In this document: positions 3,064-31,293 of the stretch, in pieces
Numbering within the stretch: position 1 is the stretch's first letter
Layout of the letters: each line of letters opens with the position of its first letter
Origin: an uncultured Bdellovibrionales bacterium
GTDB lineage: Bacteria > Patescibacteriota > Minisyncoccia > Moranbacterales > DUUL01
Assembly (NCBI GenBank): GCA_964346295.1
Contig: CAYFUG010000001.1
Span: forward strand, 20,325-84,324
Direction of reading: 5' to 3'
Length of the DNA stretch: 64,000 nucleotides
Notes under the pieces: generated by a model
Database searches by the model: none
Seen by the model: the letters and a program-made list of their open reading frames with translations, nothing else
Told to the model about the DNA's origin: nothing
Program-made: the position numbers and the translations under genes

Positions 3064-3091
3064 GACCTTAATCATAAGTCTCTCAAATAAT

Positions 3092-4752: not shown

Positions 4753-4772
4753 CTCGACTCAATGCCCATTTC

Positions 4773-6287: not shown

Positions 6288-6337
6288 GGAAATTAACTAC
6301 AATAAGCTTCTTCCAAAAAAAATTAACCAAAAAAATA

Positions 6338-6856: not shown

Positions 6857-6997
6857 GCTATTCGAATCTAGCTTTTTACGAGCAGAGGCATGCCATGGCG
6901 TGCCTCTTTTTATGAACCATTTTCCAGCCCCCGCTTTGATTTTAATCTCGTTTTAGGTTAAAATAAAACTCGTAATTGCATTTAAAAATAAACTAAA

Positions 6998-7648: not shown

Positions 7649-7665
7649 GTTAAGATAAAAATTCA

Positions 7666-7956
7666 ATGAAAAGTAAAGTTATTTTAATCCCTCATAATGG
7701 AGTAAAGCCATTAAACAATCTCGCTGGAACCAGATCGCTAATTAGATGCAAAAAGGCTCTGGAAGTCCTCAAGGAAAAAGATTTTGATTACATCATAACC
7801 TCAGGAGGCCTTGGACACAGACAATCAGTCCAAACAATTCCAGTAGCAGACTTAATGAAAAACTGGCTAGTAAAAAAAGGCATCTCTCAAAAAAATAACC
7901 TAGCTTCTTTCTCCCGACAGAATCTTCTTCGTAAACAGCTTAGGAATTTCAAATGA
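7666..7956 (+). CDS. Hypothetical short protein (96 aa), possibly a fragment
   Basis: ORF only; overlaps next gene start by 4 nt. Confidence 0.3.
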   Translation: MKSKVILIPHNGVKPLNNLAGTRSLIRCKKALEVLKEKDFDYIITSGGLGHRQSVQTIPVADLMKNWLVKKGISQKNNLASFSRQNLLRKQLRNFK

Positions 7957-8864: not shown

Positions 8865-9166
8865 CTGGGGCTCATACCATCGTTAGTTAAATTCTATGCT
8901 TATTATAGGCTTAAATCAAAAACTTTGAGTAAGAGCCTACTTGAAAAATCCAAGGAAGAAAGATGCGAGCGAGAGAATATGAAATTGAAGATAATTCCTC
9001 TTGTCTGAGTAGTTTAGATTTTTATCTGCAATCTTGTGAATCCTTGGAGCAATATTTAGCTAAAGAATCAAGCTGCGAGTCAGGAATTATCTTCAATTTC
9101 ATATTCTGGAGCGAGATCATCAATTCCAAAATCATTATTGACTTCAAAAAAATCCTTTTTTCAATG

Positions 9167-9766
9167 AAAATAATAACCATCTCCGGCCTAGACGGCTCCG
9201 GCAAAACCACCCAAGCAGACCTCCTAGAAAAACACTGGCAACAAACCGGCCGGCGAGTTTTATGTTTTCACTCCGCTCAATTCTCCATTGCTAACCGTCT
9301 TTTGATCAAGAAGGAAAAACGAGGCTCCGGTCAATCTCCCGCTGTCAGTAGAGCCAGTTGGCCTAAAATTTTCCTGCGCAAAATCGCCCTCTTGATTGAC
9401 ATCCTGCACTTTCGAATCCGCCTGTCTCTTTGGAGGCGCCGATTTGACTTTCTACTTGCTGACCGCTATTTTTTTGATCAACTGCTCAACATTGCCTTTT
9501 TAGAAAATAAACGCAATCTAGAAGAGTTTTCACCCCTAGAAGAAATCCTCACTCGCTTAATACCTCGCCCTAGTTATTGCTTTTTTATCGAACTGAATCC
9601 CCAAGAAATTCTTAAACGCAGCCGTGGGGTAGAGCAAGGCCTAGAGTACCTAAAAAAGAAAGCCCCTCTCTACCAATCCCTGACCCAACACCCTTTTTTC
9701 ATTAAGATTGACGGGAGCCAAGACAAACAGGCTATTTTTGAAAAGATTTTAGATAAGATTAAATAA
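9167..9766 (+). CDS. Thymidylate-kinase-like P-loop kinase (track ORF extends to 8963, but the P-loop domain starts at the Met at 9167)
   Basis: MKIITISGLDGSGKTTQ P-loop, LADRYFFDQ (DRY motif) as in Tmk/dNK family; the 68-aa N-terminal extension of the track ORF has no kinase features. Confidence 0.6.
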   Translation, partial: KIITISGLDGSGKTTQADLLEKHWQQTGRRVLCFHSAQFSIANRLLIKKEKRGSGQSPAVSRASWPKIFLRKIALLIDILHFRIRLSLWRRRFDFLLADRYFFDQLLNIAFLENKRNLEEFSPLEEILTRLIPRPSYCFFIELNPQEILKRSRGVEQGLEYLKKKAPLYQSLTQHPFFIKIDGSQDKQAIFEKILDKIK

Positions 9767-9852
9767 CTCCCTACTCCTTCTAGTTCTTAGAGCCTGTTTC
9801 AAAAATCGCTTTCGCAATGAAATTTTTAAATTTTTAGCAAAAGATTAGTCCT

Positions 9853-9957
9853 TCAGATTTTGAGTGAATCTTAGAGGGCAACCGAGTATCAAAGCGAGCC
9901 GCGCTAAAAGAAAAATACTGCAAGTAAGACGCCAGGGCTTCGACAGCGAAATTCGCC
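9853..9957 (+). repeat. Probable degenerate copy G of the dispersed repeat
   Basis: gattttgagtgaatcttagagggcaaccgag...gcgagccgcgc...gacagcgaaattcgcc resembles copy B 5' and 3' modules. Confidence 0.35.
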
Positions 9958-9979
9958 AAAACATTAAGACTCCCAACCA

Positions 9980-11461
9980 ATGTCTTTAATTCGAGCCTCA
10001 CTATTCCTAACTCTAGCAGAGTTATTTTTTAATTTCAGCGGTTATATCACCCGCTCGGCTTTAACGCGCATTTTAGGCCCAGAAGATTATGGACGATATG
10101 GAATTATCATCACCTTCTCTACTTTAGTAGTGGTTTTAATTGGCCGAGGAATACCAATTGCCATGAGTAAACAACTAAGCGAGGTGATAACTAGTCGCCC
10201 TCAATTAGTGCTTCCAATTAAAGTCACTGCCGCTAAAATCCAAGTGGTCTTGATATTGGCCGCCAGCTTAATCTACTGGCTTTTGTCTCCGGTTTTTGCT
10301 TGGGCCCTTAACGATTCCTCACTCACCCCCCTCTTTAGACTTTCTACTCTCACTATTCCCACCTTTGCAGCTGCCAGCTTTTATATTTACTACTTCAACG
10401 GCCTCCAGCAATTTGGAAGATCCTCCCTTACTAAACTTTCCCGAGGAATTTTCAAAATCGGCTTGGTAGTTAGCCTAGGGATGCTATTTTCTATTAGTGG
10501 CGCTGTATGGGGTCACGCTCTCACTCCTTTGGCAGTATTTATTTTTGCCTGGTTAATTGACACCTCCAATTCAAAATTCCGGACTGCCAGCAACAAATCT
10601 TCGACTAAAACTGAATCTTCCCCTCAAGAAGTTGACTGGAAAAGTCTTTTGGGGTTTGCTTGGCCAGTGATTCTATTTATGATTTTTTACGAATTGATGA
10701 TCTCAATTGATCTTTACATGGTTAAGGCTATCTTGGGGAGTGACTCCCAAGCCGGATTCTACGATGTCGCTCTCACCATCAGCCGAATTCCCTATCACGG
10801 GTTCTACTTCCTGACAATTATCCTGCTCCCGAAAATTTCTCAAATTTTAAGCAACAAAAAAACCCAAGAAGCTCAAAGGATTGTCCAAAAAGCCTTTCGA
10901 TTTTTACTAATGATTCTGATCCCCGGAGTTGCCCTACTTTCAATTTTCGCTTCTTCTGCCATTACTCTCTTTTCTGGAAATGATTATTTGGAAGCGACGG
11001 GAGCTCTTCAAATTATTGCCTTTGGAATGGGATTCCTGACTATTTTCTATATCCTGGCCTTCGTACTAAAAGGAGCTGGGGAAAATCACATTTCAATGAG
11101 AATTGCTTTTATGGGAGGACTGGTGAACAGTCTCTTAAATTTTTTCTTAATTCAAAAGTGGGGCTTGCCCGGCGCGGCCATTGCCACCTCGCTAACCTCC
11201 TTCTTGGTGATGATCTTAGCTATCTACTTTACTAAAAGAAAAATAGGATCCTTTCTCCCTGGTGTAGATTTAGTGAAATATTTATTGGCTACAGGAGTGA
11301 TTTCTTTACTGGCTTTAAATCTCCCTCCGGGAAAATTTATTTTTTTAATTTGGTCAATCTTGCTAATGGGATTATATCTTACTCTACTTTGGATACTGCG
11401 GGCAATTAATCTGGAAGATGGACGGTATCTGAAGAATAACTTCCTAAAAAGAAAACCTTGA
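9980..11461 (+). CDS. MOP-superfamily polysaccharide/oligosaccharide flippase (Wzx/MurJ-like), about 14 TM
   Basis: 493 aa, about 14 hydrophobic helices, typical polysaccharide-biosynthesis-protein architecture. Confidence 0.75.
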   Translation: MSLIRASLFLTLAELFFNFSGYITRSALTRILGPEDYGRYGIIITFSTLVVVLIGRGIPIAMSKQLSEVITSRPQLVLPIKVTAAKIQVVLILAASLIYWLLSPVFAWALNDSSLTPLFRLSTLTIPTFAAASFYIYYFNGLQQFGRSSLTKLSRGIFKIGLVVSLGMLFSISGAVWGHALTPLAVFIFAWLIDTSNSKFRTASNKSSTKTESSPQEVDWKSLLGFAWPVILFMIFYELMISIDLYMVKAILGSDSQAGFYDVALTISRIPYHGFYFLTIILLPKISQILSNKKTQEAQRIVQKAFRFLLMILIPGVALLSIFASSAITLFSGNDYLEATGALQIIAFGMGFLTIFYILAFVLKGAGENHISMRIAFMGGLVNSLLNFFLIQKWGLPGAAIATSLTSFLVMILAIYFTKRKIGSFLPGVDLVKYLLATGVISLLALNLPPGKFIFLIWSILLMGLYLTLLWILRAINLEDGRYLKNNFLKRKP

Positions 11462-11534
11462 CTTGGAATTTTAAAAAAAAATTGCTATAGTAAATTTAAT
11501 AAACTCTTGTCTTTAAAAAGATAAACAAACATCA

Positions 11535-11735
11535 ATGAAAATTTCCGTCGATCATGAAAAATGCGTGGGATGTGGCCGCTGTACCGAGGTTTGTCCTGCT
11601 GTTTTCCGCCTAGAAGAATCAGGAGAAAATGCCGGAAAATCTCACATTTACGGAGAAGAAACCCCAGAAAATATTGACTGCGCTAAATCTGCTGCTGACC
11701 AGTGTCCGGTGGGAGCTATTTGGGTTGATGAGTAA
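11535..11735 (+). CDS. Small 4Fe-4S ferredoxin
   Basis: CVGCGRCTEVCP ... DQCPVGAI; terminator hairpin at 11786-11822. Confidence 0.8.
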   Translation: MKISVDHEKCVGCGRCTEVCPAVFRLEESGENAGKSHIYGEETPENIDCAKSAADQCPVGAIWVDE

Positions 11736-11906
11736 AAATCAGCTCTTGGTGCGCACACTCTCCTTTCTCTGTTCTCAAGAGAAAAAATACTCCACTAAAT
11801 TTTGTTTAGTGGAGTATTTTATTGATTCTCTTCTTGAAAAAATCAACTAGAACAGCCAATTTTCTTGCAAGAGCGCCAAAATTTTCACTTCGCATTGCTT
11901 CCTATT

Positions 11907-12017
11907 CTAAAAAGCCTGGAACATTGGCGCCAGAGTAAACCCTAGCATGCCAATCACCGCCAAGACAGAAATAATAATCCAGACTATTTTCATTTTCTTT
12001 CGCGTTCTTCTAAGCAT
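11907..12017 (-). CDS. Possible 36-aa single-TM peptide downstream of tpiA (not in ORF track)
   Basis: MLRRTRKKMKIVWIIISVLAVIGMLGFTLAPMFQAF; co-oriented after tpiA, upstream of the shared bidirectional terminator; no clear SD. Confidence 0.2.
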   Translation of the reverse strand: MLRRTRKKMKIVWIIISVLAVIGMLGFTLAPMFQAF

Positions 12018-12080
12018 ATATTTGATAAGATTAATCTTGATTTAGAAACTTCTTAAAAATTCGACTGACCAAACTACTGA

Positions 12081-12875
12081 CTAACTAGCCTCTTCCATCA
12101 TCTGCGCGATTTTAACCAGCTCCAAAGGCTTCAAGCTCGCACTTCCTACCAATGCCCCATCCATACCGGATCTGAGACAAATTTCTTCTACATTTTGAGA
12201 ATCCACGCTGCCTCCGTAAATAACCGCAGCTTGTTCTGCCAGTCGAGGACCATAAGTCTTAGAGAGAAATTTTTGAATCACTAGCCGAGCGCTCATAATA
12301 TCATTTTGATCTGGCAAACGAGCTGGTCCATTAGCGCTAATCGCCCAAATCGGCTCATAGCAAAAAATGATTCTTCGCACTCGGATAGCCTCTAGTTCCC
12401 CCAGGTATCCTTTTAGCTGATTACTGACCATCTCAAAAGTTTTTCCCTCCTCTTTTTCTTGAGCGCTTTCCCCCACACAAACAATCGGGATCAGACTTTC
12501 TTTGAGAGCAGCTTGTAATTTTTGAGCAATCATTTTAGCATCTTCTCCAAAATAACGCTTCCTCTCACTGTGACCCAGAATTACGTAGCGAGCGCCCCAG
12601 CTATATAAAGCTCGAGGGCTGGTTTCCCCAGTAAAAGCTCCTTTGCTTTCCCAGAAACAATTTTGCCCCCCCGTCTCCACTCGAGAATCTTGAAGAGACT
12701 TACTAAACTCCTCCAGGTGTAGATCGGGCGCGCAAAGTACAAACTTCACTTCAGACAATTTTTTTCCGTCTAACTCTAGGGATTTATTAAAACCCTCAAT
12801 CCAACGCTTCCTCTCGTAAGGAGAATTAAAATTCATTTTGAAATTTGCCGCAACAATCTTTTCTTTTTTAAACAT
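12081..12875 (-). CDS. tpiA: Triosephosphate isomerase
   Basis: VAANFKMN, ILGHSERR, CVGES, YEPIWAI, AVIYGGSV. Confidence 0.95.
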   Translation of the reverse strand: MFKKEKIVAANFKMNFNSPYERKRWIEGFNKSLELDGKKLSEVKFVLCAPDLHLEEFSKSLQDSRVETGGQNCFWESKGAFTGETSPRALYSWGARYVILGHSERKRYFGEDAKMIAQKLQAALKESLIPIVCVGESAQEKEEGKTFEMVSNQLKGYLGELEAIRVRRIIFCYEPIWAISANGPARLPDQNDIMSARLVIQKFLSKTYGPRLAEQAAVIYGGSVDSQNVEEICLRSGMDGALVGSASLKPLELVKIAQMMEEAS

Positions 12876-12895
12876 TTATTTATTCAATTCACAGA

Positions 12896-14932
12896 TTAAT
12901 TACAGCCACAACCGTTAGCTCCTCCAATGGAAACATGCACATGATTACCCTCTCCCCAAACATAGGCCTTCGAATTACATTGAATTGCTGCATAATTAAT
13001 TATATCTCCATATTGCTCCTCAGCCATATCCACCGCATAGGATTTTCCTACGCATTTAGTTCCTCCGTAATGGCAAGACCCCTTCTTGTGAGCACAGCCG
13101 CTAGAATAGTTACTAACAATGCATTTATTCATCCCGTAATTATCAGAGATTGAGCTAATCACCTTGGCCTGCTTGGGTAGTTTGTCGCTCATACACACGA
13201 TAAAGGAAATCAGCTCTTCAGCGGCATCTCCCTTAGTGATCTGGGCTCTAATCCCAGATTGATATTCATAGCTATCGATTCCCTTGCTAGTGTCTGGAGT
13301 CGGCCAATCTGATTGATATTCGCTTGGAGGAGCCGGAAAATGACCCATGTATTTACCACCATTCCAACTTCCCGCGTTGCCATCACCAGTTGTCCCCGGA
13401 GGAATGTTATTAGTGATTCCTCCTTCGTAGCCATCAAAAACGCTATTGGCATCACAGGTGAACTGAAACCAGCCTTCTCCTTTTTTAAAAGATCCGATTT
13501 TGTCTTGATCCACCGAGATAAAAACCAAGAGAGTGTAGACTATCAGCCAACTCAACATAGAAATTCCAAAACCCGTCAAAGTTTTGGTTAAAATCCCCTT
13601 TGCCGTTGATTTAAGACCAGGGTTTACTCCGGAAAACATATACATCAAACCCGCGACCGTAACAAAAACAATAGAGACGATGATCAAGAGCGCAAAAGCT
13701 AGGTCAAAGAGGTTTTTAAGTAGGATAAGGAGATGACAGAGAGTGCAAGAAGCAGCTTCATTGTAAGGAGTTCTGCCGTCATCACACTCTCTTCCGCAAG
13801 GAACTAGCGATTTATTAAAAGTAAAGGGACTGCCGGAGATTCCTTCGCTAGGCTGAGTACCTTGGCAATACCCCCCGCTTCCACCGTATTGCTCGCTTAA
13901 TCGCTCTTGAAATTCCCGCGCAGCTTGTTCGGCTTCAGCCGCCGCCCTCTCAGCTTCTTCATCAGACGCCTCTTGTGCCCTCCAAAACTTCTCGGAGACA
14001 AGCTTCTCAACAAATTTCTCCTGACTCAAATTCTCTTTTTTGTATATTTCAGAAACCGAAAGCTCATACTCTCTACCCAACTCGTAAGTAGAGTAGAGAT
14101 CATAGTAATTTCGATCAGTAGAAAATCTGGAAAATAAATCATTTTCGTCGTAACAATGCAAGCAGTCTCTCTTTTCCCAGCTTCCATACCCCTTCTCAAT
14201 TCCACTGCCTCTGGGGTTATAAGCATGAGGGAATTTCTTAGTTAATTTAACTTTAACTTTGCCATCAGAAGCATCTTCTGTTGCTTCTCCAATAAAATAA
14301 TTGACTAGGTAGTGCTTACCTCTCTCTATTTCATACTCTTTGAAGGGGAAATAAAACTTTTCACCCCTGCTTATTTCACTAGCAACCTCCGGACCGCTTT
14401 CTAGTTCAACTTGAATACCTGTGTTTCCCTGAAGATAATGGTTGACTACTGCTTGAATTATATGCACTTCTCCTGAAACCAAAGAGCTCTTCTGAGCTCG
14501 GTGCTCCTCTCCTTCTTCATATTCACCAGAAGAAAACCAACTTCCCTCAAAATCCTCTTCTCCATAACAGTACCTTCTGACATTAATCGCACAATTCCAG
14601 GTACTATCGTCAACTCCTTGATTGTTGGCCTCTGGAGAATAAGAAAAAATATATCGCTTGGTTGGCTCAATTAAGACATAGTCAGCACCATTAGACTGCA
14701 CTATCGCTCTATGCAAATAGACTTTAGTCCTCACGCAACCTTTTTCTCCAGCAACCCCACAAATTCTTACTCCTTCTTCTTTTTTCTCAAAAAACCAAAC
14801 TTCATCTCCAACAGTCAATTTATCAGCCGCCTGAGAAAAACTAAACAAACTAGACCAGAAAGCTACTAAGAAAAATATTCCTAACGACCAACGATTTATT
14901 TTAGCTAATTTCATTTTTGTTTTCATTTTCAT
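12896..14932 (-). CDS. Large secreted Cys-rich protein: signal peptide, central TrbC/VirB2-like (T4SS-pilin-like) segment, C-terminal zinc-peptidase-M15-like (cell-wall hydrolase) module
   Basis: N-terminal signal peptide; CTLCHLLILLKNLFDLAFALLIIVSIVFVTVAGLMYMFSGVNPGLKSTAKG; C-terminus SCHYGGTKCVGKSYAVDM ... GEGNHVHVS resembles SxHxxGxAxD / ExxH motifs of the M15 family. Confidence 0.5.
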   Translation of the reverse strand: MKMKTKMKLAKINRWSLGIFFLVAFWSSLFSFSQAADKLTVGDEVWFFEKKEEGVRICGVAGEKGCVRTKVYLHRAIVQSNGADYVLIEPTKRYIFSYSPEANNQGVDDSTWNCAINVRRYCYGEEDFEGSWFSSGEYEEGEEHRAQKSSLVSGEVHIIQAVVNHYLQGNTGIQVELESGPEVASEISRGEKFYFPFKEYEIERGKHYLVNYFIGEATEDASDGKVKVKLTKKFPHAYNPRGSGIEKGYGSWEKRDCLHCYDENDLFSRFSTDRNYYDLYSTYELGREYELSVSEIYKKENLSQEKFVEKLVSEKFWRAQEASDEEAERAAAEAEQAAREFQERLSEQYGGSGGYCQGTQPSEGISGSPFTFNKSLVPCGRECDDGRTPYNEAASCTLCHLLILLKNLFDLAFALLIIVSIVFVTVAGLMYMFSGVNPGLKSTAKGILTKTLTGFGISMLSWLIVYTLLVFISVDQDKIGSFKKGEGWFQFTCDANSVFDGYEGGITNNIPPGTTGDGNAGSWNGGKYMGHFPAPPSEYQSDWPTPDTSKGIDSYEYQSGIRAQITKGDAAEELISFIVCMSDKLPKQAKVISSISDNYGMNKCIVSNYSSGCAHKKGSCHYGGTKCVGKSYAVDMAEEQYGDIINYAAIQCNSKAYVWGEGNHVHVSIGGANGCGCN

Positions 14933-14958
14933 TTTATATAAGAACGGAAATTAAAAAG

Positions 14959-15825
14959 CTAATTCTCGACTCGGCATTCCACCTCCACCTCCGGACAATG
15001 AAAAATTATCCTTCCCTGCTGATCGGTACGAAAAAGTTCTACTTCCTTTTCCTTTAGGCGTTCCAAAACCTCCTCATGAGGATGGCCGTAACGGTTATCT
15101 TTACCAGCGCTAATAATTGCTATCTTAGGAGTAACTTTAGTCAAAAAAATTTCACTAGTAGAACTCTTGGATCCATGGTGGCCTACCTTCAGAAAATCCA
15201 CATCCACACTGGATTGATCTAGAATTAAATCTTTTTCAGCGTCTTTTTCGGCGTCACCAACAAAAAGAAAGGAGTTTTGGCCGTAATCAAGCCGGAAGAC
15301 TACCGAATTCTCATTGCGATCATCTTCAGTAGTGACCAAATAATCCGGTGCAAAAAATTCCATTCTCAGATCCTCTTCAATGCTCAAAACCGACCCCTCT
15401 CCCACCACCTCTTGTGATACGGAAAACTTCTCCAACTCCGCTTGTAATTGTTGATAAATCTCAGTTTCCGATCCTTGGCCACTACTCATAAACAACTTCA
15501 CTTGATAATTACCCAAGAGTTGCACCAATCCCCCTAGATGATCCTCGTCCGGATGAGTTAAAATCACTACTTCAATCTGTTTATCACCCGGCGGCATAAC
15601 CTCCCCCAATTCGGAAAGAAGTCTTCTTCCGTTAGGGCCACCATCGACAAGAATTTGATACTCTCCTTGGTAGTTAATTAAAGTAGCGTCTCCTTGACCC
15701 ACATCCAAAAAGCTAACTCGCAAACTAGCTTCCTCCCTTTGTTCCGCTGAAACTCGCCAATCTAAAGCCAGCACTGCCACTAATACAATATCCAGAACTA
15801 ATAAAAACCTTCGGTACCTATTCAT
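14959..15825 (-). CDS. Metallo-beta-lactamase-fold hydrolase, ComEC C-terminal-domain-like, with N-terminal anchor
   Basis: DVGQGDA, ILTHPDEDHLGG, VGHHGS motifs. Confidence 0.7.
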   Translation of the reverse strand: MNRYRRFLLVLDIVLVAVLALDWRVSAEQREEASLRVSFLDVGQGDATLINYQGEYQILVDGGPNGRRLLSELGEVMPPGDKQIEVVILTHPDEDHLGGLVQLLGNYQVKLFMSSGQGSETEIYQQLQAELEKFSVSQEVVGEGSVLSIEEDLRMEFFAPDYLVTTEDDRNENSVVFRLDYGQNSFLFVGDAEKDAEKDLILDQSSVDVDFLKVGHHGSKSSTSEIFLTKVTPKIAIISAGKDNRYGHPHEEVLERLKEKEVELFRTDQQGRIIFHCPEVEVECRVEN

Positions 15826-15975
15826 TTTAATTCCTCACTAGCGCATTAACTTAACCGCTCCTTCTATTATTCGCCTACTAATTAGGCAAATAGCAAGACA
15901 AAAAAATCCTAGAACTTCCCTAACTCTAACATGAAAATCCTAGTAAATAAATCGTAGTGCCCCTCTCTTCTTGCT

Positions 15976-17094
15976 TTACTTAATTTTAATATCTCGTAAA
16001 ATTTCTTCCCCCTCTTTGCCAAGCCGAATTCCCTGAACTCGAATACTCTCTTCCTCCACTTGAAAAACAGTATAAATATTACCCTTAAGAGCTCGATCAT
16101 ACTTACGAGAGTTGCCTACATTGCCACTTAAGACAAAATCCACTCCTGAGACAATTTTGTGGTCAAAAGCGTTTTCATGTCCAGAGATCACCAAATCGAC
16201 CTGATTCACCTGAAATATCTCCACTAATTGAGAAGAAAGATTACCCAAGCAACTCAAATCATGGCACTCTTTAGCTGATTTCTTGAAAAAAGTCACTGGA
16301 GGAATATGACTAACAACAATTTTGTTAGCCTTACGAGTATCAGACAAATCCTTCTCTAGCCATTCCAGTTGTTCTTTGTCAACAGCTTCCTTGGCAGGAC
16401 CCCCGGTAAACAAAACAGTAAAGTGCGTATTGCCATAGTCAAAGGAGTAATAAAGAGGACTTTCCTTGCTTAAAAAAACCTCTCCCCAGCTTTCAAGACA
16501 ATCCTCCCCGCACTCAATATCGTGGTTGCCAACCGCTATGTAATAATCCTGGTAGTATTTTTCAATTATCTCCTTCGCCCCTTCGATTCTAGCTTGATTC
16601 TCTTCTAAAGTAGCGGCTCCCGTGGTAATAACATCTCCTGTAAATAAGGCAAACTCCGGCTTACGGTGACTAGTCGCTTGCAAGACAACTTCTAGCTCTT
16701 CATTGTAGCCGGGCGGATCATAGGCCTCAGAATCTCCGATTCCCACGAAAGTGAACCTGGATATTTTTTCTTCTGGGCGCTTGGTTTCTAGTAAGGATTT
16801 TATCGGCAAACTTCTTTCGGAGGCCAGAATCTTAACATCTTCCGCTTCTAAAAAACGATTACCTTCCTTAATATTAGCGCTCTTTTTATCAGAACTGCCC
16901 TTCTTAGAGTTAGAGTCTGCTATAACTGGACGGTTAAATTGACCGGCTAGGTCACTCCAGAGATTGCTTAAGCCCAGCGCTCGAGGAGAATTTTTCTTTT
17001 CTAGCCAAGCATAAGAAACTAGCAAGCCAAAGATTGCTAGCAAAAAAATCACAAAAAAAATCAGATTTACTTTTTTTATTATTTTTAAAGACAT
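15976..17094 (-). CDS. Calcineurin-like metallophosphoesterase, membrane-anchored
   Basis: GDSEAY / FTGDVI, VGNHDIE, VISGHEN motifs; N-terminal TM. Confidence 0.75.
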   Translation of the reverse strand: MSLKIIKKVNLIFFVIFLLAIFGLLVSYAWLEKKNSPRALGLSNLWSDLAGQFNRPVIADSNSKKGSSDKKSANIKEGNRFLEAEDVKILASERSLPIKSLLETKRPEEKISRFTFVGIGDSEAYDPPGYNEELEVVLQATSHRKPEFALFTGDVITTGAATLEENQARIEGAKEIIEKYYQDYYIAVGNHDIECGEDCLESWGEVFLSKESPLYYSFDYGNTHFTVLFTGGPAKEAVDKEQLEWLEKDLSDTRKANKIVVSHIPPVTFFKKSAKECHDLSCLGNLSSQLVEIFQVNQVDLVISGHENAFDHKIVSGVDFVLSGNVGNSRKYDRALKGNIYTVFQVEEESIRVQGIRLGKEGEEILRDIKIK

Positions 17095-19743: not shown

Positions 19744-20366
19744 TTATCGCCTCCAAAACTTCATTAGTAACGAGTTAGTTACCACGCTCACCGAAGAAAA
19801 GGCCACTGCTAGAGCCGCTAAAGCTGGCTTGAGTAAAAATCCAAAAAAGGATACAGGAGACCGGCTGCCACCGGAATACCGATAGTATTATAAAAGAAAG
19901 CCTAAAACAGATTCTGCTTGATCTTCTTTAGAGTATACTGAGAAATTTCAATCGCCTCCCGAACATCTTCCAGGTTACTCTTCACTAAAACAATTTCTCC
20001 GGTTTCCAAAGCCACATCGGTACCGCTTCCTAAGGCAATTCCCGGGTCTGCTTGGGCTAAAGCCGGAGTATCGTTCACTCCGTCACCTACCATCGCCACC
20101 ACATAGCCCTGTTTTTGCAATTCTTTAATTTTCTCTGATTTATCCCGAGACAGTACCTCCGCTAAAACTTCTGCTACTCCCAGCTTTTCACCCAGTGCCT
20201 CCCCTACTCCTTTTTTGTCACCCGTAATTAAGAAAACTTTTTTGTTTTGCGCTTGCAATTTTTTAACCACTGCCTCCGCATTGGATTTAAGTTGGTCCAT
20301 AATTGCCAATACTCCCACTGCCTTACCTCGAGCCACCAACAAAGGCGCCTGCCCTTGCTGGGTCAT
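19744..20366 (-). pseudogene. copA: Remnant of a heavy-metal P1B-type ATPase (copA-like): C-terminal HAD/ATP-binding part and TM7-8 only, with an in-frame TAG at the conserved Trp and a frameshift
   Basis: VAMVGDGVNDTPALAQADPGIALGSGTDVALETGEIVLV...QNLF-TAG-AFFYNTIGIPVAAGLLYPF, then after a -1/+1 shift in a T5 run LLKPALAALAVAFSSVSVVTNSLLMKFWRR; about 450 N-terminal residues are absent (only about 230 bp to the next gene). Confidence 0.8.
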
Positions 20367-23498: not shown

Positions 23499-25625
23499 TC
23501 ACAACTTAAATTCTAACGAACCCAACATCTTCTCGAAGCTTTCCCAGTCAACCTTATCAGCCGGAGCCTTAGCGAAAAATGTTAGCTGGTAATTACCTAT
23601 AATTGTCCAGTACATAATGGTCTCCGGAGGATTTCTTTTAATAAACTCATTACTGCCCAAAACGATCTTTTCAAAGCCAGAATTCTCGCTCTGATTCTCA
23701 GTGAAAATCTCATAGAGCTTGTCAACCGATTTTTTTTCTTCTAATAATTTAACTCTAAACTCTACTATTTCAAAGCCATTAACAACAGAAAGATCGTCAG
23801 AAAGATCGTCGATTAAATAACGAGCGAAAGTTTTGCCTGGCTCCTGGGGGTAATTATTGATCCTTTTTATCAAATATCTTTTTTGCCCATCCATAAAGAC
23901 AAACTCATCATCCACTCCAAATTCTAGATCTCTTCTCCTTGAGTTGTAAGAGATGTCACCTCCCTGATTAACACTCTCATTAACCTCAGATAGCCCGATA
24001 CTCTCATCTTCGCCGCACTGTTCAATACTCATTTCCCTGGAATCAGGAGAGTCTTCTAAATAAACCTTTGGTATTTTTTTAGAATCTACTTCGGTAGGAT
24101 ATCTCTCAAGTATAAGCTCCTCATCAACAGACAATTTTTCCATGGTTTCTCCTCCTCCCATATTCCGAGATAAGCCTGTCTCGAGCTCTAAGAGCTTAGA
24201 AGGTCCACTACTGTAAGTCATAAATAGATACTTTTCGTCAATATTAAAAAGCGAATCCACTTCTGAAATGGGTCCCTTACTAGCCAATTGATAACTTTCC
24301 TTGGTTACCTGATCTAAGCTCTGCTTGATAATAAAATGATCTTTTCCTCTCATTACCAAATCATCTTCATTATCAATTTCAATTCCGTACTCCTCGGCCT
24401 TTACCGGACAATAAATCTCTTTTCCTATTAAAGCAAAACTCTTGCAAGGCGCCAAATTATCCAACTTAACTATCCTAGGACTACAAGAGTGAATATTTTC
24501 AGCCTTAAAAAATTTACTCCCTTTTTCTAGAATCGTAAAAATCAAAGTATCCTCATCTAGCAAGGCAAAGTTTTGATCTACTAGAATTGTATACTCACTA
24601 TTTTCCACTCCATCTATTTTATCCACAACCACTCTGCGACCTCCATTTTTAGGATCAAAAACCACTAAAACATCATGCTTAGAAGCCTCTGCCTCTTTTT
24701 GTTTATCAATAAAGCCATTAAACCTATAGCCACAAACGAAACTCGTCCCAGAAATATCCCATTTGCATAAGTCCGGACAAACCTTAATTCCGTCGAAAGT
24801 CTCCATAAAACAAAGCTCTGTCTTCTGAGATGGATTATCCACTGACAATAATTCTTCGCAATCACCATATCGACCATAATCCTCACAACTTACAAAGTAT
24901 TTTCCATTGGGAGAAATGTAACCAATGTTTTCTTTTCCAGAAGAAAACAATTTCTGCTTCTTGTTTCCATAAAGCCCACTTATCAAAATTTCCCCGCTCT
25001 CTTCATCCTCGCCCGGGTAAATAAAGCGGGCAACTGACTCCAAGGGCTTTTTAGTCTCATAAGCTTGCTGGAATTGAAGTCCTTGTTTAACTGCCGTTGT
25101 TCCAAGAAAAACAATCGCGATTATTATCAAAGCGACTAACGAAGCGGCAACCACAGAAGAAGACACTAGTACTCTTTTAAATTTTTTCTTATTCCTAGTA
25201 ATTAAGCCCCGCTTCTCCAAGATACTAACAACAACAAAAATAACCATGAGAGAACTCAAAAGAGGGAAAAAAGGAAAAAATAAAAATTCACCAGCAAAAG
25301 AAAACTTTAATCCGGTAACCAACATTACAAAGACAATCAGAGAATAAGGAATGCTTAAAACAAGAGCTTCCCACGGATCTTGGCCAAACATCAAAAAGTC
25401 AATAAATTTATAAATTAAAAAAACAGAAAAAGAGAGTGTCAGCAGCAAAACATAAATCAAAACAGTAAGCAAAATTCGCCCCTTTAAAGAGCTCTTCTCT
25501 GGGCTTTGTTGGGAACCTTCAGTTCTTGAACTGCTTTGACTAAGATTTTCTTTTTCTTCTTGCTCACTAAAATTTACTTGGTTTTCCATTTTTTTATTTT
25601 TTCCTGAATTTATAATAGCATTCAC
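23499..25625 (-). CDS. Membrane protein with large Cys-containing extracytoplasmic domain; paralog 1 of a tandem pair
   Basis: About 45% identity to neighbour across whole length; shared blocks FIYPG.EESG.IL.SG, ENIGYISPNGKYFVSC, VDWESFEKMLGSLE. Confidence 0.6.
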   Translation of the reverse strand: MNAIINSGKNKKMENQVNFSEQEEKENLSQSSSRTEGSQQSPEKSSLKGRILLTVLIYVLLLTLSFSVFLIYKFIDFLMFGQDPWEALVLSIPYSLIVFVMLVTGLKFSFAGEFLFFPFFPLLSSLMVIFVVVSILEKRGLITRNKKKFKRVLVSSSVVAASLVALIIIAIVFLGTTAVKQGLQFQQAYETKKPLESVARFIYPGEDEESGEILISGLYGNKKQKLFSSGKENIGYISPNGKYFVSCEDYGRYGDCEELLSVDNPSQKTELCFMETFDGIKVCPDLCKWDISGTSFVCGYRFNGFIDKQKEAEASKHDVLVVFDPKNGGRRVVVDKIDGVENSEYTILVDQNFALLDEDTLIFTILEKGSKFFKAENIHSCSPRIVKLDNLAPCKSFALIGKEIYCPVKAEEYGIEIDNEDDLVMRGKDHFIIKQSLDQVTKESYQLASKGPISEVDSLFNIDEKYLFMTYSSGPSKLLELETGLSRNMGGGETMEKLSVDEELILERYPTEVDSKKIPKVYLEDSPDSREMSIEQCGEDESIGLSEVNESVNQGGDISYNSRRRDLEFGVDDEFVFMDGQKRYLIKRINNYPQEPGKTFARYLIDDLSDDLSVVNGFEIVEFRVKLLEEKKSVDKLYEIFTENQSENSGFEKIVLGSNEFIKRNPPETIMYWTIIGNYQLTFFAKAPADKVDWESFEKMLGSLEFKL

Positions 25626-25627
25626 AA

Positions 25628-27658
25628 TTAACGCTTTATCTCCAGCGAACCCAGCATTTTCTCGAAACTCTCCCAGTCCACCTTGTTGGATGGGTGCTTA
25701 ATCAAAAAACTAACTTGATATTTACCTGTTCTAATCAAATAAAAGGAAGTGTCTCTCTTAACATACTCATTGCCACCCAAAGTCAACTTACTATAATCAA
25801 AGTCAGTCCCATCTTCTTGTTGCTTGTTCAGCAAGTATCGGTAAAACTCCTCCGTGGAAGATTCCTCTTCTAAAAGATTAACTCTAACCTCTGCCATCTC
25901 AAAACCATTCACCACTGCCAGATCTTCAATTTGATAGAAGGCCAAAAACTCTTGATTCGCTCCTTGTTTTTTAAAAAGCCTTTTTATCGAATACCTCTCT
26001 TGACCATCCAAAAAAATCAACCCGTCATCCACTCCAAACTTCAGATCTTCCGGGCCAGAAGCCTGGGGATCGCTCGCCTCTCTTTCCGAGTTATAAGGGA
26101 TGTTCTCTCCTTGGTTAATGCCCTCATCAAGTTCGGACGAACCGGCATTCCTACCTTCCCTGCACTGTTCAATTTTTAGCCCCCTGGAATCAGAAGAGCT
26201 CTTTAAATAAGGTCGAGGAGTTTTCTTTTTATCCTCACTATTCTTAAATATAATCCCCTCATCCTCTTCCATGTAATCCTCCTCCCATTCAAATCCTCCT
26301 CCCAGATCCCTTACTAAACCACTCTCCGTTTCTATTATCTTGTAAGATCCTCCGTAGCGAGAAAGAGCGAAAATATACTTACCATCAACGCCAACAAGAA
26401 CCTCTGTCTCTGGGATTGGTGCCTTATTGATAACTTCAAAATCTTCTCTAGAGGCCTGATTCAAGCTTTGCCTAATAATAAAATGCTCGTAGCCCTTCAC
26501 TTCAAAATTATCCTCGTCGTTAATCTCAATTCCCTGCTCTTCGGCTCTCACAACACAATAAATGCCCTCTCTTTCCAACACAAAACTCTCGCAGTCAGCC
26601 AAATTTTCCAATTCCGTTACCTTGGGCCTACAAGAGTAAATGTCATCTAATTTCAAAAAACCTCCCATTGCCTTATTAATAATCAGAGAATCTTCGTCCA
26701 AAAAATCAAACCCCTTCACCTCGCCTGCAATACCAGCTCTCCCAAGGATTTCTATTTGCCTTCCCGTTTTAGGGTTGAATAAAAGTAACCCGTTTTTAAT
26801 ACTGCAAACTAAACTATTACTACCAGAGTCCCAGTCACAAAACTGGGGACATTTTTCAGTTTCACCGGAAGCTCCTTTTTGGCATAAATCAATTTTCTTA
26901 GAAGGATCCTCAGCTACATGCAATCCTTGACAATCCCCATACCTTCCATGGCCCTCATCACAACTTACAAAATATTTTCCGTTAGGAGAAATATAGCCGA
27001 TATTTTCTTCTCCGGAAGAAAATAACTTCTCTTTACTCTCTTCATAGATTCCACTTACCAAAATATCCCCACTCTCCTCGTTTACTCCAGGATAGATAAA
27101 GCGACTTTCAGATTCCACCGGCTCTCTGGTTTCGTAAGTTTCCTGGTAATAATCCTTCTCTTGCGATATGCCGAAAGACTGATTAAACTGAATAATCTTA
27201 TCAAAAATAAACACTACCGCACATAAAAAAAGCGGCACTGCCAAAATCCTATTAAATCTTTCCCGATTTTTAGTTATAATATGCGACTGCTCTAAAACGC
27301 TAACAATAAAAAAGATCATTGCCAGAGCTCCCAGTAGAAAAGCAAAAGGAAACAAATCAAAAATCGCCGCCCCTCCCCCAAATATCGGAACCACTCCTAG
27401 AACACCAATTAAAAAGACAGTTTGGACTATCTCACCAAAATCAGTCCGGAGCAAACCCCTATCCGGATCAAAATTAGCGAAAGCAAAAAGATATAAAACA
27501 ACTACAGCCAAGCAAAACAACGATACATATATTGCTATCGTCATCAATAACTTCCCTACAAAATCAAACTTCTTCTCTCTTGGTTGATTCCCCAATTGAA
27601 AAGAAGCAGGTTCTTTTTGCCCTTCTTCTTGATCACTAAAATTTACTTGGTTTTTCAT
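25628..27658 (-). CDS. Membrane protein with large Cys-containing extracytoplasmic domain; paralog 2 of the tandem pair
   Basis: See paralog 1; identical N-terminal MxNQVNFS(E/D)QEE. Confidence 0.6.
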   Translation of the reverse strand: MKNQVNFSDQEEGQKEPASFQLGNQPREKKFDFVGKLLMTIAIYVSLFCLAVVVLYLFAFANFDPDRGLLRTDFGEIVQTVFLIGVLGVVPIFGGGAAIFDLFPFAFLLGALAMIFFIVSVLEQSHIITKNRERFNRILAVPLFLCAVVFIFDKIIQFNQSFGISQEKDYYQETYETREPVESESRFIYPGVNEESGDILVSGIYEESKEKLFSSGEENIGYISPNGKYFVSCDEGHGRYGDCQGLHVAEDPSKKIDLCQKGASGETEKCPQFCDWDSGSNSLVCSIKNGLLLFNPKTGRQIEILGRAGIAGEVKGFDFLDEDSLIINKAMGGFLKLDDIYSCRPKVTELENLADCESFVLEREGIYCVVRAEEQGIEINDEDNFEVKGYEHFIIRQSLNQASREDFEVINKAPIPETEVLVGVDGKYIFALSRYGGSYKIIETESGLVRDLGGGFEWEEDYMEEDEGIIFKNSEDKKKTPRPYLKSSSDSRGLKIEQCREGRNAGSSELDEGINQGENIPYNSEREASDPQASGPEDLKFGVDDGLIFLDGQERYSIKRLFKKQGANQEFLAFYQIEDLAVVNGFEMAEVRVNLLEEESSTEEFYRYLLNKQQEDGTDFDYSKLTLGGNEYVKRDTSFYLIRTGKYQVSFLIKHPSNKVDWESFEKMLGSLEIKR

Positions 27659-27738
27659 TTTTTTCTACTTTTTATTTTCTAATCACAATCTTAAAGGCTT
27701 CTTCATTCCACTCAAAAAGCCTTGCTTTGTTATTGAAT

Positions 27739-27782
27739 TGTTTAAATTTGACACCAAAATTTTCAAAATTTGAAAGCCTCAC
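27739..27782 (+). repeat. Partial copy (3' module) of the dispersed intergenic repeat, just downstream of the hydA stop
   Basis: gacaccaaaattttcaaaatttgaaagcctc versus copy F taacaccaaaattttcaaaataggaaagtcc. Confidence 0.5.
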
Positions 27783-27787
27783 CCAAA

Positions 27788-29572
27788 CTAGCTTCGGTCA
27801 GTATAACTCGTATGCAAAAACTCCTCGGAAAGTTCCCCACCCGGCTCGCCCAGAAAATCCTTGTACAATTTTTTGATGGCCGGATTATCATGAGATTTAC
27901 GAAGCGGCATGTTTTTGTCCTTTTTGTAAATCGCCTCTAAGCGCTTCTGCCTCACCGCTGAAGTAGTGGGAATCGGCTGGCCGCCACCACCTAAACATCC
28001 ACCCGGGCAAGCCATTACCTCTACAAAGTGATAGTCGCACTCCCCTTTTTTAATCAACTCCAAAATCTTCTTGGCATTATGAATCTGATGGGCCACCGCC
28101 ACTTTAATCTCCAACGGCTCAGGTCGTCCCTTTCCTTTAGGAATAGTTACGGTGGCCTCCTTGATACCTTCTAAGCCACGCACCTTGTCAAAATCTAACT
28201 TCGGCAAATCTTGAGAGGTGATCTTTTCGTAAGCCGTTCTTAAGGCCGCTTCCATCACTCCTCCGGTGGCTCCAAAGATAATCCCCGCTCCTGAATACAA
28301 CCCCAGGGATTGATCAAATTCACTCTTTTTGAGTTTGGGTAGCTTGATGAAGCGCTTCTTGAGAGCTCGAGCTAATTCTCGAGTAGTCACTACCAAATCC
28401 ACATCCTGCAAACCATCTCGGCTCATCTCTTCTCGCTGGGCCTCAAATTTTTTACTAGTGCAAGGCATTACCGAAATACTGGCCAAATTTTCTCGATTAA
28501 CCTTTTTTTGATCAGCAAAAAAAGTTTTCAACAGTGCTCCCAACATTTGCTGGGGCGACTTAGCGCTCGAAAGATGCGGAATCATTTCCGGCCAGTATTT
28601 CTCCAGATATAAAACCCAAGAAGGGCAACAACTGGTAAACATTGGCAATTTCGTATCTTTACCCGCCAATAAATCCTCCACCCGGTGAATAAGCTCCGCT
28701 GATTCCTCTAGAATGGTCAAATCGGCCGAAAAAGTGGTGTCGAAAACATAATCCGCCCCCAGTTTTCTCAAGGCAGTCGGAAGCTGATCCTGGGCAAAAT
28801 GCCCCGGCTCTAAACCAAATTCCTCTCCAATCGTAAATCGCACCGAAGGCGCTACTTGAAAAATTTTAAGCCTGGATTCATCCTCTAAAATTTCGTCTAG
28901 GCGAGATAGATCATCCTTTTCAGTAATGGCTGCCGTCGGACATTGAATACTACACTGACCACAAAAAATACAATCCAGGGGCTCTTGATCCGGAGTGCCC
29001 ACCCGAGTTTGAATGGCCCGATGATGCATTCCGTAAGCTCCGACTGCTTGCACTTCTCGACAAACTTTGATGCAACGCCGACACTCAATGCAATATTGAC
29101 TATCGCGAGCAATGGAAGGATTAGCTTCATCCACTACTCGATTTTTTAAGCTTTCTTTGAGGGTTCTTAACTGATCCTCTTTCTCAAATACGCCGTAATT
29201 CGGGACCAACTCTTTAGTGTCTAGTTTCATCTCCTTAGCCATTTTCTGCAGCTCACAATTTCCGCTTCTCCTACACTGAGAGCACTTCCCCGCATGATCC
29301 GCCCACAAGAGCTCTAAGTTAATCTCCCGGGCTTTTTTGATCTCCTCATCTTCCGTGACTACTTCCATTAAATGTTCAGCGGGAGTATTACAAGAAGTCA
29401 CCAAGCCTCCCGTTTTATCGGTTTTCACTAAGCACATCCGACAAGCTCCCTCTGGCGCTAAATCGCCATGGTAACATAAAGTAGGGATAAAAACACCTTC
29501 CTTTTGGCAAACCTCTAGCACTGTTTGCCCTTGTTCGAAATCGTAGATTTTTTTGTTGATTTTTATTTGCAT
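27788..29572 (-). CDS. hydA: [FeFe]-hydrogenase catalytic subunit, monomeric CpI-like (M3 architecture)
   Basis: H-cluster motifs FTSCCPSW (L1), MPCTSKKFE (L2), EVMACPGGCLGGGGQP (L3); N-terminal 2Fe-2S (CYHGD...CRMC), His-ligated 4Fe-4S (HAGKCSQCRRSGNC), two 4Fe-4S ferredoxin motifs. Confidence 0.95.
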   Translation of the reverse strand: MQIKINKKIYDFEQGQTVLEVCQKEGVFIPTLCYHGDLAPEGACRMCLVKTDKTGGLVTSCNTPAEHLMEVVTEDEEIKKAREINLELLWADHAGKCSQCRRSGNCELQKMAKEMKLDTKELVPNYGVFEKEDQLRTLKESLKNRVVDEANPSIARDSQYCIECRRCIKVCREVQAVGAYGMHHRAIQTRVGTPDQEPLDCIFCGQCSIQCPTAAITEKDDLSRLDEILEDESRLKIFQVAPSVRFTIGEEFGLEPGHFAQDQLPTALRKLGADYVFDTTFSADLTILEESAELIHRVEDLLAGKDTKLPMFTSCCPSWVLYLEKYWPEMIPHLSSAKSPQQMLGALLKTFFADQKKVNRENLASISVMPCTSKKFEAQREEMSRDGLQDVDLVVTTRELARALKKRFIKLPKLKKSEFDQSLGLYSGAGIIFGATGGVMEAALRTAYEKITSQDLPKLDFDKVRGLEGIKEATVTIPKGKGRPEPLEIKVAVAHQIHNAKKILELIKKGECDYHFVEVMACPGGCLGGGGQPIPTTSAVRQKRLEAIYKKDKNMPLRKSHDNPAIKKLYKDFLGEPGGELSEEFLHTSYTDRS

Positions 29573-29616
29573 ATTTGAAAGTTACTTTTGAAAAATCTAA
29601 AAATAAGCAGACTCCT

Positions 29617-31164
29617 TCACAATTCCCTTTCAACTTCTTCACCCTTCTCTCTATCCCAATAAATCACCTTGGAAACTTTCCTCCTCAAATTCACCTTCAA
29701 GCGGCAATAATATTCTCCCTTGCTCCAAAACAAGCGCAACTTCTTCTCGCTACTTTTTTCTAGCTTGAATTTACCATCAAAGGCCGGATAGCTATTTCTA
29801 AATCTTGCCAACCAAAATAGGCGCTTCACCACTCTCCTTTGAGACTCTCTTTTAACATCTTGCTTGCTATAAAAATGCCGATTGATATCCCGCCCAATGC
29901 CAGTTTCTTCCAAAAGCTCTGTATCGTTTTCTCCTGCTAACAATCCCACATAATATACCTGAGGGATCCCTGGGACAAAAAATTGAATTGCTCGAGCCGC
30001 AATATAAGCATTATCATTCTCTCCCAAAGCCGAGTAATAAGTGCAATTAAGCTGATAAATGTCCACATTACTAGAATTGTAACCCGAAGCCCGCAAGGCC
30101 TCATTACCTCCAAAGGACTTAATCAAATTAACCAAATAATCTCGCTCCTTCTCGTTAATCAGGTCTTCTACATCCGGCACCGGCAGCCCGTCATGAGTGT
30201 CCAAAGTAGTGATCTGATTTTCCGGCCGAATTTTAATCCAGCGCTTCAGTGACTGGGTATTCTTAGAGTGGATAGCATCCAACACCAACATCGGCAAGGC
30301 AAAATCATAAATATAATCCACCCCTTTAATTTTGGCCAACTTAAACTGATCAGTATAATGAGAATGGACCTCCGGCAAACTTTTCATTCCAGCCTGATGA
30401 GACACCGCCGAAATCCAGCGAATAAAACTCAGAGTCTGAGGGATCATAAAACTTCGAGTGTCCCGTTCTTTAGCCACATAACCTACTGCATCTAAGCGCA
30501 AAAGGTTCGCTCCTTGCTCCGCCAAAAATTTAATTATTTCTCGAAAATATTTGATTACTTCTTTATTTTTAATATCCAAGTCAACTTGATCAGAAGAAAA
30601 AGTGCACCACAAACTCTTACCTCTTCCGTCTTTCAGTTCAAATTTAATAAACGGAGAACCGGGCCGTGGTCGATAAATCTTGCCCAAAGTAAGACGATTC
30701 ACCCCGCCTTTATGAAAAACAATATCCCAAGCCCGCAAATTATCAGCTGCCCTTTCTAAAAGCCGCACTAAACGAGGATACAGCTTCTTATTAAGCTTAA
30801 TGCGCCGAGAAAACTTTTCCGCACTGATAAACCAGTTCTTATATTTAGAATCCCGGCCTTTTTTAAGGTAATCCTGAAAAATATCCGACTGCGAAGAAAT
30901 ATGATTAACCATAAAATCAACCATTAAATCAAATTCCTGGCCAATTTTTTTGACATCCTCCCAGTCACCAAACTTGGGATCCACCTCAAAATGAGTCAGG
31001 GGTGAAAACCCTCGATCGGAAGAAGAAGGATAAAAAGGTAAAATATGAACTCCTCCTATTACTCCCGAAAAGTCATCCTTTAAAATTTCATAGAGACTTT
31101 TGAGGTCTCCTCCTAAGCTATCCGGATAAGTAATCAGTTGAATTTTATTTTGCAACTGTTTCAT
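29617..31164 (-). CDS. GH13_18 sucrose-phosphorylase-like glucoside phosphorylase
   Basis: N-terminal IQLITYPDSLGG, LRLDAVGYV (nucleophile region), TLDTHDG; about 500 aa without starch-binding extensions. Confidence 0.8.
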   Translation of the reverse strand: MKQLQNKIQLITYPDSLGGDLKSLYEILKDDFSGVIGGVHILPFYPSSSDRGFSPLTHFEVDPKFGDWEDVKKIGQEFDLMVDFMVNHISSQSDIFQDYLKKGRDSKYKNWFISAEKFSRRIKLNKKLYPRLVRLLERAADNLRAWDIVFHKGGVNRLTLGKIYRPRPGSPFIKFELKDGRGKSLWCTFSSDQVDLDIKNKEVIKYFREIIKFLAEQGANLLRLDAVGYVAKERDTRSFMIPQTLSFIRWISAVSHQAGMKSLPEVHSHYTDQFKLAKIKGVDYIYDFALPMLVLDAIHSKNTQSLKRWIKIRPENQITTLDTHDGLPVPDVEDLINEKERDYLVNLIKSFGGNEALRASGYNSSNVDIYQLNCTYYSALGENDNAYIAARAIQFFVPGIPQVYYVGLLAGENDTELLEETGIGRDINRHFYSKQDVKRESQRRVVKRLFWLARFRNSYPAFDGKFKLEKSSEKKLRLFWSKGEYYCRLKVNLRRKVSKVIYWDREKGEEVEREL

Positions 31165-31293
31165 CTTTCACTCTGATTATCAATTTTGATTTTGATTTGT
31201 TTTTTTTATAAGCATTTTATTATATCACAAATCTTTTGAAAATTTTTAGCTAAAATTACCCCAGAGCAACTATCTACTGCTGAGAGTAACTAT

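Follow-up and report, generated by a model that had tools for sequence, protein, structure and literature searches.

The [FeFe]-hydrogenase gene hydA described here lies on the minus strand of a 64-kb stretch of metagenomic DNA (the window), directly behind a gene for a sucrose phosphorylase (SP). The window corresponds to approximately record positions 23277-87276 of contig Ga0153774_1000055 (97,571 bp, JGI metagenome 3300012002), of which 77.7 kb (record positions 16368-94059) form the readable part. The window carries hallmarks of Patescibacteria, or CPR (candidate phyla radiation) bacteria, such as a T4SS_pilin (PF18895), DUF4012 and few metabolic genes, and all close homologues with a named source stem from metagenome-assembled genomes of Patescibacteria, Moranbacteria or Parcubacteria. 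The host is an ultra-small bacterium of the Patescibacteria whose genome looks Moranbacteria-like; it is not among the GTDB species representatives, in which the best match is 65% identical. Both enzymes are of known kinds, and the non-routine feature of the locus is a strongly conserved hydA of the HydABC lineage that is located behind an SP gene and has no hydB or hydC beside it.

HydA contains the Pfam domains Fer2_4, a NuoG-type His-ligated 4Fe-4S domain, two ferredoxin-type 4Fe-4S motifs, Fe_hyd_lg_C (E 6.7e-88) and Fe_hyd_SSU. This is the M3 architecture, with a [2Fe-2S] cluster, a His-ligated [4Fe-4S] cluster, two further [4Fe-4S] clusters, the H-domain and a C-terminal small-subunit-like tail. 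The TIGR02512 model is passed with 490.5 bits (cut-off 405.95). The ligands were checked in an alignment with CpI of C. pasteurianum (1FEH/3C8Y), HydA1 of T. kivui (8A6T), HydA1 of A. woodii (7Q4V) and 117 homologues. Aligned to CpI, all 16 accessory-cluster ligands are present, and together with the H-cluster cysteines C316, C371, C522 and C526 the count is 20 out of 20. The FS2 ligands are C33, C44, C47 and C61 and the FS4C ligands H93, C97, C100 and C106, with those of FS4B and FS4A likewise in place. The three H-cluster motifs read FTSCCPSW for L1 (C315, C316; class motif TSCCPxW), MPCTSKKFE for L2 (C371; class motif MPCxxKxxE) and VEVMACPGGCLGGGGQP for L3 (C522, C526; class motif ExMACxxGCxxGGGQP). 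The proton path of CpI (C299, E279, S319, E282, R286) has its counterparts in C315, E290, S335, E293 and R297, and 14 residues of the H-cluster environment are also present in the same alignment. The first-pass annotation of this DNA had described a complete HydA with all three H-cluster motifs and the accessory Fe-S domains, and this is borne out by the alignment, in which no H-cluster cysteine is lost. The HydA and SP genes are both real and intact, and HydA has its full set of cofactor ligands.

The same annotation had called the enzyme CpI-type, a label that has to be withdrawn, since the HydA phylogeny, the NCBIfam scores and the PDB scores place it with the HydABC lineage. Of the NCBIfam models, NF040763 (‘NADH-dependent [FeFe] hydrogenase, group A6’; HydDB A3) scores best, with 740.7 bits, narrowly under its cut-off of 765, while the CpI model NF040762 (HydDB A1) is not passed (553.4 bits, cut-off 900). 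Among PDB sequences, HydA matches T. kivui HydA1 with 543 bits, A. woodii HydA1 with 496 bits and the CpI entries with about 416 bits. Pairwise identity falls from 68% with the nearest Patescibacteria HydA to 48% with T. kivui HydA1 and 40% with CpI. A neighbour-joining tree (a distance tree without bootstrap support) was built from 118 Patescibacteria HydA sequences and three references. In this tree the window HydA falls within the Patescibacteria clade; the sister of that clade is T. kivui HydA1, and CpI is a distant outgroup. The placement within the clade is robust despite the missing bootstrap values; the branching order inside it is not. By descent, as judged from its sequence, HydA is therefore assigned to the HydABC-type lineage and not to the CpI type. 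CpI, which is monomeric and ferredoxin-dependent, shares the M3 architecture, the ligands and the proton pathway with the window HydA but belongs to a different clade. The HydA1 proteins of T. kivui and A. woodii align with it end to end and have the same five clusters and domain order. However, these two enzymes are heterotrimers with a long HydB, whose extra [2Fe-2S] and two [4Fe-4S] domains dock ferredoxin and permit electron bifurcation (PMC10021017), whereas no hydB or hydC is found near the window hydA.

The partner genes were followed in 85 non-self comparison loci (11 from Patescibacteria and 74 from other phyla), made up of the five nearest homologues plus 80 loci obtained by scanning one genome for each GTDB species. 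The five nearest HydAs with usable contigs (65-68% identity) share one common layout, hydC-hydB-hydA, with a NuoE-like HydC (PF01257) and a NuoF-like HydB of 406-410 aa (PF01512 and PF10589). Just upstream of hydCBA, the opposite strand carries two further conserved genes, one for a TM1266-like putative hydrogenase regulator and one for a 170-aa membrane protein (L003-L009). Across the full set, 79 of the 85 loci have a HydB-like gene on the same strand at most 600 nt upstream of hydA, and in 84 such a gene occurs somewhere in the locus, the sole exception being interrupted by a contig end. In the Patescibacteria, HydB amounts to a bare NuoF core that has neither extra Fe-S domains nor the GGPSG motif. 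The latter serves to recognise bifurcating enzymes (Losey et al., PMC7311640), and by the criteria of these authors the short HydBs therefore point to Patescibacteria HydABC complexes that would be NADH-dependent and non-bifurcating. The name of the best NCBIfam model agrees with the NADH-dependent reading of these HydBs. The Patescibacteria relatives have an operon that matches group A6 (NF040763), with a short HydB, whereas the window HydA has no NADH-binding partner in the readable contig.

Searching the window by tblastn with Patescibacteria queries, we found no HydB, HydC, TM1266-like protein or neighbour of the latter. The same four queries yielded nothing in the contig extensions (record positions 16368-36859 and 73313-94059). 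When databases were searched with HydB from the closest hydCBA relative as the query, at least 27 HydA-bearing contigs could be paired with a HydB match among the matches listed (at least 52% identity), and none of these matches comes from the 97,571-bp contig of the window. The window hydA is an orphan across at least 77.7 kb. The first-pass term ‘monomeric’ may still be apt, as no partner genes occur over this distance; if true, the state would have arisen by secondary loss or separation and would not be ancestral.

The arrangement is found again in one related genome. The 6.4-kb contig L088 (JGI metagenome 3300037274) has the order FtsZ-TPR-SP-hydA, as in the window, at a nucleotide identity of 77-80%. 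At the amino acid level (tblastn), identity reaches 85% for FtsZ, 78% for the TPR protein, 88% for SP and 93.7% for HydA, the last over 508 residues up to the contig end. Synonymous sites are saturated between the two (pS 0.63-0.75), and non-synonymous divergence among the four neighbouring genes is smallest in hydA (pN 0.046, dN/dS ~0.01). This pattern indicates that hydA is under strong purifying selection, and its position behind SP is old and inherited. The GC content at third codon positions (GC3) and the codon composition of hydA are like those of housekeeping genes; compositional signs of a foreign gene were sought and none were found. Of 180 columns with a conservation of 95% or more, HydA deviates from the clade consensus at only five (S103, L122, Q261, Q263 and S291), and all five deviations also occur in L088. 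S103 stands where the 117 other sequences invariably have Asn, and it is located in the loop binding the His-ligated cluster. In HydABC this cluster lies at the HydA-HydA' dimer interface (PMC10021017), and the substitution is at most suggestive.

The junction between SP and hydA differs in length, with 403 nt in L088 (4432-4834) against 44 nt in the window. Within the L088 spacer, about 180 nt match the 5′ end of the window open reading frame (ORF) 8963-9766 in antisense (window 8955-9115), with 70% identity. This stretch looks like a rearrangement scar at the hydA-SP joint that has since been deleted in the window lineage. A perfect 14-nt palindrome, GCCTGCCGGCAGGC, with none expected by chance, is present elsewhere in the window (54136-54149). 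The core GCCTGCCGGCAGGT, which is nearly that of this palindrome, also occurs in the L088 spacer, and the palindrome may be part of a small repeated element.

A second orphan HydA, 62% identical to that of the window, was found in the Moranbacteria genome P0035 (contig L093, 9543-13932). Upstream of this hydA there are only a 117-aa coiled-coil ORF and valS. Downstream lies ligA, which in two of the five hydCBA relatives is located one or more genes after hydA. No trace of hydC or hydB is present within 10 kb of the P0035 hydA, and none of the HydB matches listed (at least 52% identity) comes from its 57,694-bp contig. It looks as if hydC and hydB were deleted here and hydA retained, rather than relocated. 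The pattern in P0035 makes it more credible that HydA functions alone in this Patescibacteria branch.

Sucrose phosphorylase converts sucrose and phosphate into glucose-1-phosphate and fructose. The gene upstream of hydA, a GH13_18 phosphorylase according to the first-pass annotation, matches such an enzyme in sequence model, fingerprint and fold. It passes the sucrose-phosphorylase equivalog model TIGR03852 with 509.7 bits (cut-off 334.4), and its best matches among PDB sequences belong without exception to GH13_18 phosphorylases, namely the SP of J. ciconiae (465 bits), the Marinobacter glucosylglycerol phosphorylase (449 bits), T. thermosaccharolyticum SPP (421 bits) and the SP of B. adolescentis (BaSP, 381 bits). 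Residues were aligned to BaSP, whose sequence was checked to be identical to 1R7A. The catalytic triad D225 (nucleophile), E265 (acid/base) and D325 corresponds to D192, E232 and D290 of BaSP. The −1 subsite and catalytic residues D50, F53, H88, R223, D225, E265, H324, D325 and R425 are conserved, and Y229 and H267 are also kept. Loop B reads YRPRP (Y164/P166/R167), loop A N366-V-D-I-Y-Q371, and the acid/base loop PEVHS, not (T/S)ETN. True sucrose phosphorylases have the loop A fingerprint N(L/V)D(I/L/V)YQ, while the other GH13_18 specificities are marked by GFDVHQ or KxxYYQ (sucrose-6F-phosphate), VGAIYQ (glucosylglycerol) or a loop A Glu plus (T/S)ETN (glucosylglycerate) (Franceus and Desmet, PMC7178133). 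Of these motifs, the window protein carries that of SP alone. Its AlphaFold model has a mean pLDDT of 91.9, and the top 20 PDB fold matches are all GH13_18 enzymes (TM 0.86-0.89). By all these sequence-based measures, the gene is predicted to encode a genuine GH13_18 sucrose phosphorylase, in itself an ordinary enzyme. BaSP (1R7A) and J. ciconiae SP (7QQJ) share the triad, the −1 subsite, loops A and B and the fold with it but lack a 32-aa insertion (FSRR...FHKGGVN, at about aa 118-160) that immediately precedes loop B of the +1 subsite. This insertion is found in about 84 of the 120 closest homologues, the source-named ones being Patescibacteria, and in no solved GH13_18 structure. It is modelled as a helix with lower confidence (pLDDT 60-79) and could affect acceptor preference and specificity or oligomerisation.

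Apart from the window, the adjacency of SP and hydA occurs in L088. It was seen in none of the 85 HydA loci, all of which lack an SP homologue within 10 kb, and at neither of two other SP loci. In L089, another Moranbacteria genome, a fructokinase-like PfkB follows SP after 3 bp. In a third genome, SP has unrelated neighbours and a hydCBA-type HydA is encoded on the same 206-kb contig. The pairing is one inherited event in one narrow lineage and no recurrent association. We also considered whether SP and PfkB form an ancestral pair that was split by hydA, an idea that was rejected as weakly supported: the L089 PfkB is 23% identical to the window PfkB, and the latter is generic. The window does encode TIM, iPGM and a sugar kinase. 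A route from sucrose via glucose-1-phosphate and fructose to glycolysis, a reduced carrier and finally H2 is biochemically plausible. We put it forward conditionally because neither phosphoglucomutase nor pyruvate:ferredoxin oxidoreductase was seen in the sequence read. The first-pass annotation had read a disaccharide-to-H2 route from the adjacency itself; its enzyme identities were right, but the route is a generic fermentative inference and the adjacency recurs in one relative only.

The features of the locus are listed in Table 1. As described in the first-pass annotation, hydA follows the GH13 gene at 44 bp and in the same orientation, and a small ferredoxin is encoded elsewhere in the window. 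A terminator scan found no terminator-like hairpin in the SP-hydA spacer. Between genes, minus-strand terminator-like sites occur only at 32116-32100 (after ftsZ) and at 22276-22255 (after pfkB, the last gene ahead of this hairpin). Because no such site lies between them, the genes for the TPR protein, SP, HydA, the two membrane proteins and PfkB could form a single transcription unit. SP and hydA may accordingly be co-transcribed in the window. Promoter-like matches around the locus are no commoner than in shuffled sequence, and the TGaTATAAT element upstream of SP is therefore only suggestive and no proof. The window PfkB has only weak NCBIfam matches, to ribokinase, 1-PFK and fructokinase models.

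Table 1. Coordinates of the hydA locus and of the ferredoxin gene in the 64-kb window
Feature	Position	Strand	Basis
Sucrose phosphorylase (SP), GH13_18, 515 aa	29617..31164	-	TIGR03852, residue alignment, fold
SP-hydA spacer, 44 nt	29573..29616	-	sequence read, terminator scan
HydA, [FeFe]-hydrogenase catalytic subunit, 594 aa	27788..29572	-	Pfam, NCBIfam, PDB sequence matches, CpI alignment
Spacer after hydA, 129 nt	27659..27787	-	tblastn, folding
Membrane protein, 676 aa, tandem paralogue of the 708-aa neighbour	25628..27658	-	repeat families D1-D6
Membrane protein, 708 aa, sharing 45% identity with its 676-aa neighbour	23499..25625	-	tandem paralogue
PfkB-family sugar kinase, 339 aa	22453..23472	-	PF00294 at 3.8e-31
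Spacer upstream of SP with promoter-like matches, including TGaTATAAT at 31227-31219	31165..31293	-	sequence scan
Ferredoxin, 66 aa, single-cluster, CxxCxxC...CP	11535..11735	+	Pfam Fer4 families

In the two membrane proteins encoded downstream of hydA, transmembrane helices at the N-terminus are accompanied by a large C-terminal domain that contains Cys. Neither protein has a Pfam or NCBIfam match, and their family comprises 22 representative clusters among 1.84 billion proteins. A role as new hydrogenase partners was considered and dropped, given the lack of Fe-S motifs, the lack of family matches and the small number of clusters. The only repeats near hydA, spaced at about 2.1 kb, stem from the tandem paralogy of these two genes. 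The remnant of a repeated 3′ module that had been noted just past the hydA stop is not present, as tblastn of HydA against the window finds no second copy there, and the 129-nt spacer at this site folds no better than shuffled sequences (z −0.63). Neither the tRNA scan nor the Rfam scan of the window gave a match. Two further ORFs on the minus strand were noticed. A 154-aa ORF (19902-20366) covers no more of the heavy-metal P-type ATPases than their C-terminal third (TIGR01525 positions 367-518 of 560) and is probably a gene fragment or pseudogene. In a 450-aa protein encoded between hrcA and dnaK (55442-56794), two NUDIX matches are joined to a C-terminal GrpE domain, an unusual GrpE fusion.

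We propose that hydA was separated from hydC and hydB in this lineage and placed behind the SP gene. HydA would now act alone and evolve H2, with electrons from a small ferredoxin entering at the surface [2Fe-2S] or the His-ligated [4Fe-4S] cluster, and would thereby dispose of reductant from sugar fermentation. Such a stand-alone HydA fed by ferredoxin would operate like CpI. We consider it somewhat more probable than not that HydA works without partners today, ferredoxin being the likeliest donor; the candidate is the 66-aa ferredoxin, which is encoded 16 kb from hydA on the other strand and is unlinked. The stand-alone function, the ferredoxin donor, the co-transcription with SP and the coupling to sucrose are what we infer from the locus, and several points weigh against them. 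Isolated T. maritima HydA is reportedly active with artificial dyes and not with ferredoxin, which means that a HydA of the HydABC lineage need not accept ferredoxin directly. No clear Shine-Dalgarno sequence was seen directly before the hydA start codon, and with junctions of 44 and 403 nt a conserved co-transcription with SP is not certain. A pyruvate:ferredoxin oxidoreductase is not seen anywhere in the readable sequence. The hydE, hydF and hydG genes, already reported as absent from the window by the first-pass annotation, were not found when all ORFs of at least 300 aa in it were scanned, nor in record positions 16368-94059. This absence carries little weight, because in the five Patescibacteria hydCBA relatives with precomputed Pfam annotation there are no maturases within 10 kb either. 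In the literature we found nothing relevant on maturases of CPR [FeFe]-hydrogenases or on orphan HydAs, the CPR hydrogenase papers found being concerned with [NiFe] enzymes. Finally, record positions 1-16367 and 94060-97571 and the other contigs are unread, and hydB and hydC could lie there. YjbQ and two small CCG-domain ORFs (PF02754) are located at the left edge of the readable contig (L091 1-1141). Because the relatives have YjbQ roughly 8 kb upstream of hydC, it is possible that an ancestral or residual hyd locus is situated just beyond it, to the left of the readable part.

This last point leads to the explanation that only the gene order has changed, and that HydA assembles with HydB and HydC encoded elsewhere into an NADH-dependent HydABC. 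The nesting of HydA in a clade with near-universal HydB and HydC neighbours is in line with it, as are the mere five substitutions in 180 conserved columns, which suggest no obvious remodelling of the interface, the YjbQ synteny, and the unseen remainder of about 20 kb of the contig plus the rest of the genome. We nevertheless regard a split HydABC as rather unlikely, given the lack of HydB and HydC in 77.7 kb, the HydB search (at least 52% identity) that paired at least 27 HydA-bearing contigs and not this one, and P0035, where hydA keeps its ligA neighbour while hydC and hydB are gone from that spot, a pattern that resembles deletion more than relocation. A non-catalytic or decaying leftover is a different matter: hydA would have been stranded by a rearrangement and, with maturases or partners lost, would have no active H-cluster. 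The maturase genes not seen in 77.7 kb, the unusual gene context and the tendency of CPR genomes to lose genes (PMC7304191) could be read in this way, but the cluster ligands and proton-path residues are all intact, HydA is the most conserved of the four genes shared with L088, and the five hydCBA relatives are equally devoid of nearby maturases, so that we judge this reading highly improbable. We give even less credence to an ancestrally monomeric, ferredoxin-dependent hydrogenase of the CpI type (prototypical group A1). It would account for the CpI-like M3 architecture, the missing neighbours and the small ferredoxin in the window, yet the higher identity to T. kivui HydA1 and to the hydCBA-linked Patescibacteria HydAs (48 and 68% vs. 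40% to CpI), the NF040762 score of 553 against 900 and the tree position within the HydABC-linked clade all speak against it.

Group A subtypes are usually assigned from neighbouring genes, as domain architecture alone cannot separate stand-alone enzymes from NADH-linked or bifurcating ones. The present locus is CpI-like by architecture, HydABC-type by descent and stand-alone by context. For metabolic reconstructions of CPR genomes this means that neither a ‘ferredoxin hydrogenase’ nor an ‘NADH hydrogenase’ label should be given before lineage and context have been checked. If the partners are truly absent from the genome, a streamlined CPR bacterium can reduce an NADH-dependent hydrogenase to a single polypeptide, and the window HydA would be a small natural member of the trimeric lineage in which the surface features that choose between ferredoxin and HydB could be tested. 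More tentatively, a Moranbacteria-like branch may have made the catalytic subunit of HydABC stand-alone by losing hydB and hydC, either at least twice or in one sub-clade, and may have wired hydA into a sucrose-utilisation unit (SP ... PfkB), so that sugar catabolism and the release of H2 would be turned on at the same time. If true, this would be a natural case of a HydA from a trimeric lineage that has been re-tooled to take its electrons straight from ferredoxin.

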